A DNA stretch of 64,000 bases from an uncultured virus (IMG/VR IMGVR_UViG_3300042013_000063). Lineage: Duplodnaviria > Heunggongvirae > Uroviricota > Caudoviricetes. The notes under the pieces are model-generated. The model made no database searches. It had not been told where the DNA came from and saw nothing but the letters and a program-made list of their open reading frames with translations. Position numbers and translations under genes: made by a program. The DNA is taken from the IMG/VR virus record IMGVR_UViG_3300042013_000063; one strand, given 5' to 3'. Every line of letters starts with the position of its first letter. Position 1 is the stretch's first letter. Shown in pieces: positions 9,635 through 47,257 of this stretch.

Positions 9635-9890
9635 GGCTGCACCTAGCGATGGGGTAAGGTCTCAAACAATTGGCAAGCAAACACGAGTGCCAACTGTAAA
9701 ATGGTAAAAAATAACTAGCACTAACCTATTGTATAGGAGATTGTGCTCCGAGATGATCGAAAGGTCGTCTTTCAATGGGAGGGCTTTTCCCTTTCGCGAA
9801 AAACTCTCGGTGTCACCGCGTTAAATTAAACCTTCCTAGCAGATGGTAATGAGGCCAGGATTAGAATTCGATTGAAAAACTAATCACCCC

Positions 9891-14493: not shown

Positions 14494-14575
14494 TAGTTCG
14501 GCACACATGCCTTAGATGGTATGTGTGCCGTATCCACCTTGGATACCTTTCTTTTTCTTTTAGAGGGCCTATCCA

Positions 14576-45427: not shown

Positions 45428-46036
45428 GTGGAATTGAAAGAACTGTCCCGCCAGATCAAAGAGTACCGCGCTTACACCAAGATGAATAAGCAGCTGTTCA
45501 GCAAACTCATCGGCGCCAGTGCCAAAACCCTGACCCGCCTCGAAGACGGTGGTCATATTCTCGTTGAGACGCGTCAAGTGTTCATTAACGCGCTCAACAA
45601 CAAAACGCTGCACCCCGGTATGATCCAGTTAGCCACCAATGGACGTGCTCTTAAGGGCGATGCTGTAGAGTCTGCGTTCGCTAAGCTGAACCTCCCGCTG
45701 CCCCTGAGCATCGAGCTGACTAATCTCATTGAGACAGCCAAGCGCTATCAGCGCCTCATCGTGGCCTGGGGTAAAACGAACGGTCGTCCAACGATGGCTA
45801 ACCGTATGTTCAAGGTAACATCGCAACTCGTGGTGGAACTGGAACGCCCTAACTCTAACGTGCCCAAACAGCGTCATTGCATGATGCTCGGTATGGTGCA
45901 AGGCTTCATGATCAAGGAAGGGGTGATCACGCTCGACGAAGCATTCGACGACCAGAATACGTTGTACTATGTTGACCAATCACCTAAAAAGGGAGCTTCA
46001 CATGAACCGGTTAGCCCATCGCGACAAGCCAGCTAA
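45428..46036 (+). CDS. XRE-like helix-turn-helix protein with additional C-terminal domain
   Basis: IKEYR...MNKQLFSKLIGASAKTLTRLEDG fits the XRE HTH pattern. Confidence 0.7.
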   Translation: MELKELSRQIKEYRAYTKMNKQLFSKLIGASAKTLTRLEDGGHILVETRQVFINALNNKTLHPGMIQLATNGRALKGDAVESAFAKLNLPLPLSIELTNLIETAKRYQRLIVAWGKTNGRPTMANRMFKVTSQLVVELERPNSNVPKQRHCMMLGMVQGFMIKEGVITLDEAFDDQNTLYYVDQSPKKGASHEPVSPSRQAS

Positions 46037-46511
46037 ACAATTCATCGCTTACATCCCGGCTGCTAACGTAGCCAAGATCAAAGAACCTTCGATCGTGATC
46101 TCGATCAAGGGTGCCCATAACGAACGCCCTGAGATCAACACTCAGAAGCACCACGTCTTCAAGCTGGACTTCGACGTCGGTGACTGGGCGGTTGAATGTG
46201 GCAAGAACCTGCAAGAGCAGCAGGTCATTGATCTACTGACGTTCCTTGAGACTCACAAGGACTCTGGTCGTGATGTGTACGTCCACTGCACTGAAGGGCG
46301 TATCCGCTCTTACAGCGTGGCGACTGTGCTGCGTCAGGAAGGTATGTTCATGAGCGCGCGTGGCAACCCGTTGCTGGGTCCAGGCGGTTGCTTGGATCGT
46401 CCTACCTGCAACACCATGAACGAGTACTTCGAGAAACTTGAGAAGCTTGCCGAAGACAAGTCCGAAGAAGTCGCCAGTACCGGTGCAGTCGAACACGTCT
46501 ACACTCAGTAA
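46002..46511 (+). CDS. PTP/dual-specificity-like cysteine phosphatase
   Basis: VYVHCTEGRIRS (HCxxGxxRS) P-loop; upstream FD; GGGAG RBS before ATG 46002. Confidence 0.85.
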   Translation: MNRLAHRDKPAKQFIAYIPAANVAKIKEPSIVISIKGAHNERPEINTQKHHVFKLDFDVGDWAVECGKNLQEQQVIDLLTFLETHKDSGRDVYVHCTEGRIRSYSVATVLRQEGMFMSARGNPLLGPGGCLDRPTCNTMNEYFEKLEKLAEDKSEEVASTGAVEHVYTQ

Positions 46512-46517
46512 GCGTCA

Positions 46518-46556
46518 GCAGGAGAGGGGCAACCCTCTCCTGCATTCCTTTTCTTT
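46518..46556 (+). terminator. intrinsic terminator
   Basis: GCAGGAGAGGG-GCAA-CCCTCTCCTGC then T-rich tract. Confidence 0.8.
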
Positions 46557-46585
46557 GGCCTAAAATCGTAATAAAATCCATACCC

Positions 46586-46598
46586 TACATCAATATGT
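46586..46598 (+). promoter_or_regulatory. putative promoter (variant TACATCAA) for RNA cluster
   Basis: AATAAAAT-CCATACCC-TACATCAA, same spacing as other early-type motifs; also contains TATG. Confidence 0.5.
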
Positions 46599-46666
46599 GG
46601 GAGCAGTTCGTGTTACTCCATTCCTTGTGGTTGTAAGCATAAAACGTGACGAGCATGCGTCCCACA
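46596..46666 (+). ncRNA. candidate structured RNA 1 (long bulged hairpin)
   Basis: TGTGGGA/TCCCACA, GCA/TGC and GTTCGT/ACGAGC nested stems. Confidence 0.5.
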
Positions 46667-46680
46667 CATCTTCCTGAACC

Positions 46681-46790
46681 GGGAGCGGTACCGAGAGAAG
46701 GCTTCATCTACCTGTGACAATCGAGCCCTACCCGTCGGCCTCATTGATTGTCCTCTTGGCTATCGCTCCCACCTATTCCGTGGTGAGCTT
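46681..46790 (+). ncRNA. candidate structured RNA 2 (rod with large bulge)
   Basis: GGGAGCGGTA/TATCGCTCCC, CCGAGAG/CTCTTGG, GACAATCGA/TTGATTGTC and GCC/GGC nested stems with several G-U pairs. Confidence 0.55.
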
Positions 46791-46815
46791 TATGGTACCT
46801 GTAGGCTTGAGTAAA

Positions 46816-46950
46816 ATGGACCTCAGCAAAGTCAAGCCGAAGTCCCGTGAAGAACACCGCAAGACTCTGGACCAATGGTTCGCGAGTCAGCGCGAGCTTG
46901 AAAGGATCTGTAAGGAGCAGGGCATCCCCGTTCCGATCATGGTCTGTTGA
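46816..46950 (+). CDS. small hypothetical protein (44 aa)
   Basis: ATG 46816 in ORF 46714..46950; phage-like codon usage only from this ATG. Confidence 0.5.
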   Translation: MDLSKVKPKSREEHRKTLDQWFASQRELERICKEQGIPVPIMVC

Positions 46951-46956
46951 TTTATG

Positions 46957-47057
46957 GCGGGGTTAACTCAATTGGATAGAGTACTGCCAGTAACCGTCCT
47001 GTCCCCATCAGACGGTGACCGCGGGAGATGCCGGTTCGAATCCGGTGCCCTTCCCCA
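46957..47057 (+). ncRNA. tRNA-like RNA with extended anticodon arm
   Basis: Canonical D arm (TA-ACTC-AATTGGATA-GAGT), T arm (GCCGG-TTCGAAT-CCGGT), imperfect acceptor stem and encoded CCA; anticodon arm ~24 nt too long. Confidence 0.7.
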
Positions 47058-47059
47058 CT

Positions 47060-47206
47060 ACACGTCCCTCGGTGTGCACGCCCTGGGAAGCGACTTTGTC
47101 GAGGTTCATCCGATAAAGCTACGCAGTGTTACCTGATGGACTACCATACGACCTCCTCATGGAGACGTGGTACGTGACTTTGTTGGTAGAACAGTAACCC
47201 GCACAA
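47060..47206 (+). ncRNA. candidate structured RNA 4 (multibranch)
   Basis: CTTTGTCG/CGATAAAG, GTTAC/GTAAC, CTACCA/TGGTAG and CTCC/GGAG stems. Confidence 0.45.
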
Positions 47207-47215
47207 AGCCTCTGT

Positions 47216-47257
47216 ATCCTCCTCCCGAAAGGGAGGAGGATGTATGCCCTCTTCTTT
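47216..47257 (+). terminator. terminator closing the RNA cluster
   Basis: ATCCTCCTCCC-GAAA-GGGAGGAGGAT then GTATGCCC and pyrimidine tract. Confidence 0.75.

Follow-up and report, generated by a model that had tools for sequence, protein, structure and literature searches.

A compact unit of conserved structured RNAs, of the kind found in phage tRNA regions, in an uncultured jumbo phage

Within a 64,000-nt stretch of DNA from an uncultured virus (hereafter the window), we found a compact unit that is a real operon of uncatalogued structured RNAs, of a known kind, the stable RNAs of phage tRNA regions. Judged by sequence comparison, three of its four RNA elements (RNA-1, RNA-2 and RNA-4) represent conserved RNA families that show compensatory changes and match nothing in Rfam; the remaining element is shaped like a tRNA, and a small conserved gene lies in their midst (Table 1). 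The preliminary description of this DNA had proposed a self-contained transcription unit consisting mostly of structured RNAs selected at the RNA level, and the covariation detected in three of the four elements supports that proposal. That the RNAs of the unit are conserved functional RNAs is, in our judgement, very likely. Our main reading, to which we assign a probability of roughly 0.55, is that the unit descends, much shrunken, from a jumbo-phage tRNA/stable-RNA operon, and that its precursor would be cut into stable, trans-acting, protein-binding RNAs.

What phages do with the RNAs other than tRNAs that their tRNA regions encode, such as RNA C and RNA D of T4, has long been asked. Three such families are now defined, with covariation-supported folds and invariant loops to mutate, and cultured phages carry them (RNA-2 and RNA-4 in pPa_SNUABM_DT01, hereafter DT01, and a probable, already transcribed RNA-2 in phiKZ), such that the question becomes testable in a model phage.

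Table 1. Features of the unit and its upstream border (window coordinates).
Feature	Coordinates	Strand	Evidence
Upstream gene with a weak dual-specificity phosphatase match	46011..46511	+	Pfam DSPc E 6e-4, below the curated cut-off; tblastn matches annotated as phosphatases
Terminator-like hairpin of 11 bp and a U-rich tail, at the end of the upstream gene	46518..46556	+	Terminator scan (hairpin 46518-46543); z -6.0
Region resembling a phage promoter, with an A-rich stretch, CCTACAT (46584-46590) and, at the inferred start, TATG (46594-46597)	46570..46597	+	
RNA-1: hairpin, variable closing stem around a conserved core ending AAAACGU	46596..46666	+	Four-locus model E 0.008; 6/12 pairs with two-sided change
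RNA-2: predicted three-way junction of a 17-bp closing stem (one bulge), a short hairpin (AUCUA loop) and a long hairpin (CCCGUC loop), with an unpaired RCCUA tail	46681..46775	+	
Conserved 52-aa protein gene, typical of tRNA regions in these phages	46792..46950	+	Homologues; Shine-Dalgarno-like GGTGAG upstream
tRNA-shaped RNA with both D and T arms preserved and an encoded 3' CCA; acceptor stem holding a mismatch and two G-U pairs; ~24 nt added to the anticodon arm	46957..47057	+	
RNA-4: predicted multibranch RNA; palindromic GUGCAC (47074-47079) as the loop of one hairpin; loop of a second hairpin (47102-47110) pairing with 47135-47142 in an 8-bp pseudoknot; 3' hairpin with GAACAGU loop	47060..47213	+	
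Closing hairpin with GAAA loop, probable terminator	47216..47257	+	z -5.1; absent from the terminator scan list; hairpin 3' of RNA-4 in each homologue inspected

Setting, boundaries and folding of the unit

Among the genes of the window are those for chimallin, RNA polymerase subunits and a divergent family-B DNA polymerase, and one of its proteins is ~21% identical to phiKZ-type proteins; the window belongs to a chimallin-encoding, nucleus-forming jumbo phage distant from the cultured ones. Near-identical DNA was present in sequencing runs from rhizosphere, plant, peat and wastewater (four runs aligned; the low-share runs X15-X20 were left out). One of the runs, X9, is an RNA library; at this locus it yields a 15-kb contig of flat depth that carries the same differences as a DNA run, and it is no evidence of expression.

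At its 5' border the unit follows a phosphatase-like gene, which also precedes the RNA cluster in locus L001 and in DT01, and the terminator described after this gene was recovered as terminator-like by our scan. The motif CCTACAT occurs 10 times in the window, several times ahead of genes, and together with the adjoining A/T-rich stretch it is likely a phage promoter motif; at 9889, 20239, 42644, 46584 and 47574 it follows such a stretch ahead of genes, that of chimallin included. All eight RNA-1 candidates begin at TATG, a sequence that also marks the published phiKZ start P130 and that we take to be a promoter motif of the phage RNA polymerase. At the 3' border, the hairpin of the proposed GAAA-capped terminator stands (47216-47241), but it has no immediate U run. 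After closing hairpins, here (47242-47249) and at the ends of homologous clusters, TATGC(C) often appears in place of a long U run.

As a whole, the 662-nt unit folds at z -5.3, with none of 20 shuffles equally good. The earlier claim that four consecutive segments fold holds for the first two on this measure (RNA-1, z -3.0; RNA-2, z -3.9), but the tRNA-shaped RNA (z -0.1) and RNA-4 (z -0.8) fold no better than shuffles. Among 128 control windows of 95 nt sampled, 6 reached z <= -3, and the 95-nt window beginning at RNA-1 scored only -1.7, so the folding score alone is not decisive and we relied on comparison with relatives. Other strongly folding 95-nt windows (z -3.4 to -9.4) lie at 14501, 20501, 40501, 50501 and 53001.

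Database searches agreed with the earlier remark that no Rfam family is recognisable in the unit. An Rfam scan of the window returned nothing at gathering score, and the five matches at E <= 10 offered only a weak one to the tRNA clan (21.7 bits, E 0.15). Searching 50,697 phage records with the unit by blastn gave just two short matches, neither of them to T4. Two tight motif scans returned only L001 and one chance hit in coding sequence (L118).

Three RNA families and their relatives

RNA-2 had been drawn as a ~110-nt rod (46681-46790); the comparison instead argues for a three-way junction (46681-46770) followed by an unpaired ACCUA tail, with 46776-46790 serving as the ribosome-binding site of the following ORF. 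A model built from the window sequence alone recovered three homologues among 26 sources (L001, DT01 and L145), and viral contigs scanned with a pattern yielded 19 hits; a four-sequence model accepts 12 of these (two being training loci). In the alignment of 11 distinct sequences, pairing holds in 93.9% of cells and two-sided change affects 26 of the 31 pairs, a level reached by none of 500 shuffles and compared with at most 11 pairs in slid controls; the covariation score is 0.667 (0.205 when shuffled, at most 0.10 when slid), and these pair counts lean high because the alignment was made to fit the model and the terminal G-C pairs were preset in the scan pattern. The UCUA core of the short loop recurs in 10 of the 11 sequences, though it lies outside the scan pattern. 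Run against whole records, the model matched 4 of 23, three of which were training records, and there was no match in PhiPA3, PA1C or PaBG, where the first look had given no candidates. In cellular genomes the pattern gave at least 120 hits; among the 80 scored, the best were plain hairpins of no more than 20.5 bits, and none of these 80 was a host copy. In the tRNA arrays of L122 (4215-4345) and L126 (4340-4470) we also noted four-way-junction RNAs that carry both RNA-2 loops; these lie outside the model scoring.

The best match in whole records outside the training set lies in phiKZ, at 263184-263258 (E 0.009-0.019, 23.5 bits). The supplement of PMC10914365 places there a gene-less 120-nt unit between a start, P130 (a predicted middle promoter), and a terminator, T119, and files the transcript (TU198, 263172-263292, upstream of PHIKZ289) as a 5'UTR-derived, unvalidated ncRNA candidate. 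In the extent given by that supplement, the candidate resembles RNA-2 in its CCCGUC loop, its CCCACCUAU tail and its TATG start, and differs in being shorter, in lacking the AUCUA hairpin and in having its own terminator. It is covered to at least 80% in 45 phage records. We consider homology between this transcript and RNA-2 likely; since the score lies just 3 bits above the 20.5 bits reached by chance hairpins among the bacterial controls, the link rests also on the common loop, tail and independent transcript.

Since RNA-2 stands just ahead of a start codon in 14 of 15 matches (an ATG 13-28 nt downstream), the main rival to a trans-acting RNA is control in cis, in which RNA-2, and perhaps RNA-1, would be a riboswitch-like or protein-binding leader controlling how the gene behind it is translated. 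In 12 matches the proteins encoded next resemble one another at the N-terminus (related to crAss001_48 in the two tested), the RCCUA tail is predicted to pair with the ribosome-binding region in 5 of the 11 distinct sequences, and the 5'UTR filing of the phiKZ RNA points the same way. However, genes of three unrelated families follow RNA-2, pairing of the tail is weak, at -0.6 to -5.6 kcal/mol, and missing in 6 of the 11, terminator-like hairpins rather than genes come after RNA-1 and RNA-4, the four-way variants with both loops sit inside tRNA arrays, and the phiKZ RNA ends, according to the same supplement, at an intrinsic terminator. We regard a cis-acting leader as unlikely.

The fixed loops of RNA-2 invite a second alternative. 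The C4 and CI RNAs are Y-shaped with two loops, and RNA-2 could be an antisense RNA of this type, pairing through its own two conserved loops with a target RNA, possibly 16S rRNA; its fold is likewise Y-shaped and its end is of RNase P type. The complements of both loops do occur in E. coli 16S rRNA (GACGGG at 108 and 922, TAGAT at 789), as does CCCGTC itself at 1402, but such matches are within chance because 30% of 6-mers and 73% of 5-mers occur in 16S rRNA. Under a strict pattern, moreover, no paired target for the loops was present within 1.5 kb on either side at any of 15 loci, and no C4-family Rfam model matched at E <= 10. An antisense role of this kind thus appears improbable.

RNA-4 had been described as a multibranch element (47060-47206); its ordinary folding score offers no backing, but covariation and a predicted pseudoknot do. 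The DT01 cluster ends with a homologue, and a two-sequence profile recovered five more records at E <= 2e-15 among 198 loci, records that had been collected for carrying RNA-2, which biases the co-occurrence of the two RNAs. In a plain MAFFT alignment of six sequences, 16 of 42 pairs show two-sided change (6.1 in shuffles), while one of five covariation measures, that of further pair types, does not exceed the shuffles (82/500). The 9-nt hairpin loop can pair at 8 of 8 positions with the downstream strand in all six sequences and its enclosing stem covaries too; on this comparative evidence RNA-4 is pseudoknotted, which explains its ordinary folding scores. The GUGCAC palindrome is invariant in all six, and the stem around it varies. 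A pattern search for RNA-4 gave hits in 7 of 26 records; controls gave similar counts, and several hits arose by chance in coding sequence.

No more than 3 nt separate the start of RNA-4 from the CCA of the tRNA-shaped RNA, and in L186 RNA-4 lies just 3' of a degenerate tRNA-like RNA. This position, with the pseudoknot, recalls the theta (HDV-like) ribozymes, structured RNAs that PMC10879173 places directly behind phage tRNA 3' ends and whose cleavage site is expected within 5 nt of such an end, and it raises the alternative that RNA-4 cleaves itself there. The adjacency is confined to these two, however, being absent from the five other carriers (DT01, L191, L192, L194 and L178), and in related strains (runs X9 and X10) an insert of 255 letters, placed precisely at the CCA end, separates it from RNA-4. 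RNA-4 also differs from the theta ribozymes in topology and size: its consensus holds one pseudoknot and a closing stem that joins the ends, whereas PMC10879173 gives HDV-like ribozymes a nested double pseudoknot with a catalytic C in J4/2, features that we did not find in the consensus when judging from the fold rather than from that paper's descriptor. No ribozyme family in Rfam matched at E <= 10. We consider self-cleavage very unlikely.

RNA-1 is the weakest of the three families. The likeness, which involves an A-rich core, first emerged from weak profile matches and led to four loci (L120, L131, L146 and L148) in which RNA-1 stands alone between TATG and its own terminator. A model made from those four loci only found the RNA-1 of the window and two further candidates (E 0.04 and 0.46); it misses L001, whose likeness is seen by alignment only, and of 26 whole records it matched four, three of them used in training. 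The two-sided changes compare with 3.1 pairs in shuffles, and 12 of 500 shuffles are as high; these counts too lean high, because the alignment was fitted to its own model and the scan pattern fixed terminal G-C pairs. MAFFT with RNAalifold on six candidates produced no consensus pairs, and only the four closer ones folded together. The outer stem is supported and the inner fold is predicted only.

Taken over the three families, the search for homologous loci that had been proposed for this unit thus yielded two-sided changes beyond those in shuffles, and the argument from G-U pairs for selection on RNA rather than on DNA palindromes is upheld by G-U substitutions across distant phages. These changes, the strand-specific loops and the pseudoknot also speak against chance folding, or palindromes acting at the DNA level, in a non-coding gap. 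Such an explanation could appeal to the two elements with unremarkable scores, to the control windows that reach z <= -3, and to the tRNA-shaped RNA, a possible decaying pseudogene for which no distant homologue was found; for RNA-2 and RNA-4 it is largely refuted, and for the unit we consider it scarcely credible.

The comparisons show the three predicted folds to be kept by compensatory changes and to move as modules between phages. L001 has RNA-1, RNA-2 and the ORF and is missing the last two elements, and the order in L178 is RNA-2, ORF, a long-armed tRNA-like RNA (recognised by eye), RNA-4 and a hairpin, with other genes in between.

The marker gene and the tRNA-shaped RNA

The only ORF noted earlier in the unit, of 44 aa, was corrected to the 52-aa gene of Table 1, and on comparative grounds this gene is real. 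Its product is 46% identical to that of an ORF in the same place in L001, and it has 8 protein homologues and occurs at 13 metagenome and 16 viral loci (one weak, some duplicates) and in cultured Pseudomonas jumbo phages, among them Noxifer, PhiPA3, PA1C, PaBG and DT01 (E 5e-6 to 0.4). The protein has no Pfam match and no Atlas match of 0.9 or more. ARAGORN found tRNAs in 17 of 28 scanned loci with the ORF, and all four annotated regions examined have tRNAs nearby. The gene marks the tRNA region of these phages, and homologues of the RNAs also lie in tRNA clusters, but the window keeps no true tRNA: ARAGORN at default settings reports none. The unit is a tRNA-cluster-type operon, shrunken, with no canonical tRNA left.

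In run X12, 169 letters are inserted at the end of the ORF (46946/46947), and two of the protein homologues (P0003 and P0004) have an 8-residue C-terminal extension at the same point. In L120 (2672-3085) and L148 (about 2620-2990) another structured RNA of ~380-410 nt lies directly 3' of the small ORF; the two are alike by eye, with z -3.2 in L120 and no Rfam family at gathering score.

The element described earlier as tRNA-shaped retains the canonical D arm, T arm and 3' CCA, so that part of the description stands, but it folds no better than shuffles. Its score is below the RF00005 gathering threshold and it has no 7-nt anticodon loop on a 5-bp stem; the anticodon arm is sealed and extended, with 47 nt between D and T arms compared with 22-23 in short-arm tRNAs. 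It probably cannot decode. The D arm resembles that of tRNA-Arg, and by blastn 27 nt match a phage tRNA-Arg. The sequence homologues found were confined to near-identical strains: those at 90-95% identity retain the element (run X6 has 7 nt fewer in the arm), and a D/T-arm pattern hit 115 viral loci, of which 105 have the canonical gap of 27 and none the 51-nt gap of the window. Long arms as such recur in related clusters, where 10 of 58 tRNA-shaped RNAs outside the window have 44-105 nt (19-37 in the rest), with differing arm sequences.

An alternative, which we reject as highly improbable, is a true tRNA-His(GUG) with a 24-nt intron. A G opposite C73 is the identity rule for His, and a G does precede the stem here opposite C73; ARAGORN, moreover, makes the call at 90% of its threshold. 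It makes no call at the default threshold with introns allowed, however, and the spliced loop would carry C33 instead of U33 and a C-C mismatch. The acceptor stem is decayed and the D arm Arg-like, and the GUG sits within a helix of the extension, in an arm whose length varies by 7 nt.

Two other identities were tried and rejected: tmRNA, for which the tmRNA mode of ARAGORN finds nothing at the default or 80% threshold, and YrlA/Y RNA, as RF02553 does not match at E <= 10 and the ends of the tRNA-shaped RNA lie in its acceptor stem, unlike those of a permuted tRNA-like domain. Among the long-armed RNAs elsewhere, those at L122 1280, L125 4597, L126 1276, L136 4875 and L137 4768 are similar to one another, with 75-78 nt between D and T arms, and those at L135 626 and L137 1501 have nearly identical branched inserts of 104-105 nt. 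An annotated tRNA-Ala of phage PaBG (L158 2318-2411), with 44 nt between the arms and no CCA, is probably a long-armed look-alike and not a decoding tRNA.

Processing, possible roles and known systems

In the main reading, the RNA polymerase of the phage would make, in middle or late infection, a single transcript beginning at the TATG site. Cuts by host RNase P would fall 5' of RNA-2 and 5' of the tRNA-shaped RNA, and 3' trimming would free the pieces; by these steps the tRNA frame would also act as punctuation for RNA-4. Processing by RNase P is plausible from the predicted ends of the RNAs, those of RNA-2 being compatible with it (a long terminal stem and an RCC tail), and according to PMC5499578 E. 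coli RNase P acts on hairpin-like phage RNAs, the short C4 (P1/P7) and CI (P4) RNAs among them as likely substrates. Cutting of the RNase Z type, also raised in the preliminary description, has no specific support because the CCA is encoded. Release of the RNAs as separate stable molecules is, on balance, a probable prediction.

Once free, the RNAs would work in trans, offering folded surfaces to proteins or to RNA-protein complexes, a role suggested by stems that vary freely around short fixed loops, and RNA-4 may pair with itself through its palindromic loop. Their most likely job would be to bind or decoy factors of host translation or of RNA-directed defence, although we hold such a protein-binding or decoy function only tentatively. 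A bolder and frankly speculative extension, which we think doubtful, is that the tRNA regions of nucleus-forming jumbo phages of the Pseudomonas type hold a common but shuffled set of small RNA effectors, in which RNA-2 (reduced in phiKZ) would be matured by RNase P and engage the host small ribosomal subunit or a factor reading it, and RNA-4 would be a small, self-dimerising pseudoknotted RNA. The idea of 30S engagement stems from the complementarity of the fixed RNA-2 loops to 16S rRNA at 789 and 922 and from the echo of the 1402 strand and the 3' end in loop and tail. If true, it would amount to an RNA-based takeover of translation by a phage, which is not described in the literature searched.

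Among known systems, the T4 tRNA region encodes RNA C and RNA D (rnaC/rnaD, species 1 and 2), small stable RNAs whose role is given as unknown in PMC3014915 and PMC9697503. Like the homologues of the present RNAs, they are encoded in a phage tRNA region, and RNA C keeps a T-arm hairpin in its predicted fold; compared by fold only, it differs from our tRNA-shaped RNA in having no canonical D arm, and the T4 cluster keeps eight true tRNAs, whereas the window has none. ROOL and GOLLD are likewise phage RNAs of unknown function near tRNA islands, and bioRxiv 2024.12.08.627333 describes multimerisation of ROOL, GOLLD and OLE through kissing loops, some of them palindromic. GOLLD often exceeds 800 nt in the same source, compared with ~155 nt for RNA-4, for which multimerisation is only predicted, and the ROOL and GOLLD models of Rfam gave no match. 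The C4 and CI RNAs belong to immunity regions, whereas RNA-2 belongs to the tRNA regions of lytic jumbo phages, with no Rfam match and no local antisense target.

In the literature searched, which left out most subscription papers, we found these folds nowhere described. In the 6 supplements of PMC10690425 searched, six motifs did not occur; its files 1, 2 and 4, outside that search, may list these RNAs. Lists of candidate small RNAs exist for phiKZ and 201phi2-1 (PMC8545117, bioRxiv 2023.10.13.562163 and PMC11512511). Around RNA-2 and RNA-4 in other phages, further gene-free and apparently structured sequence extends for several hundred bases (L145 1200-1870; L178 1000-1500, reverse strand; L169 upstream of RNA-2; L155 2670-3070 and 3490-3750), partly common to these phages.
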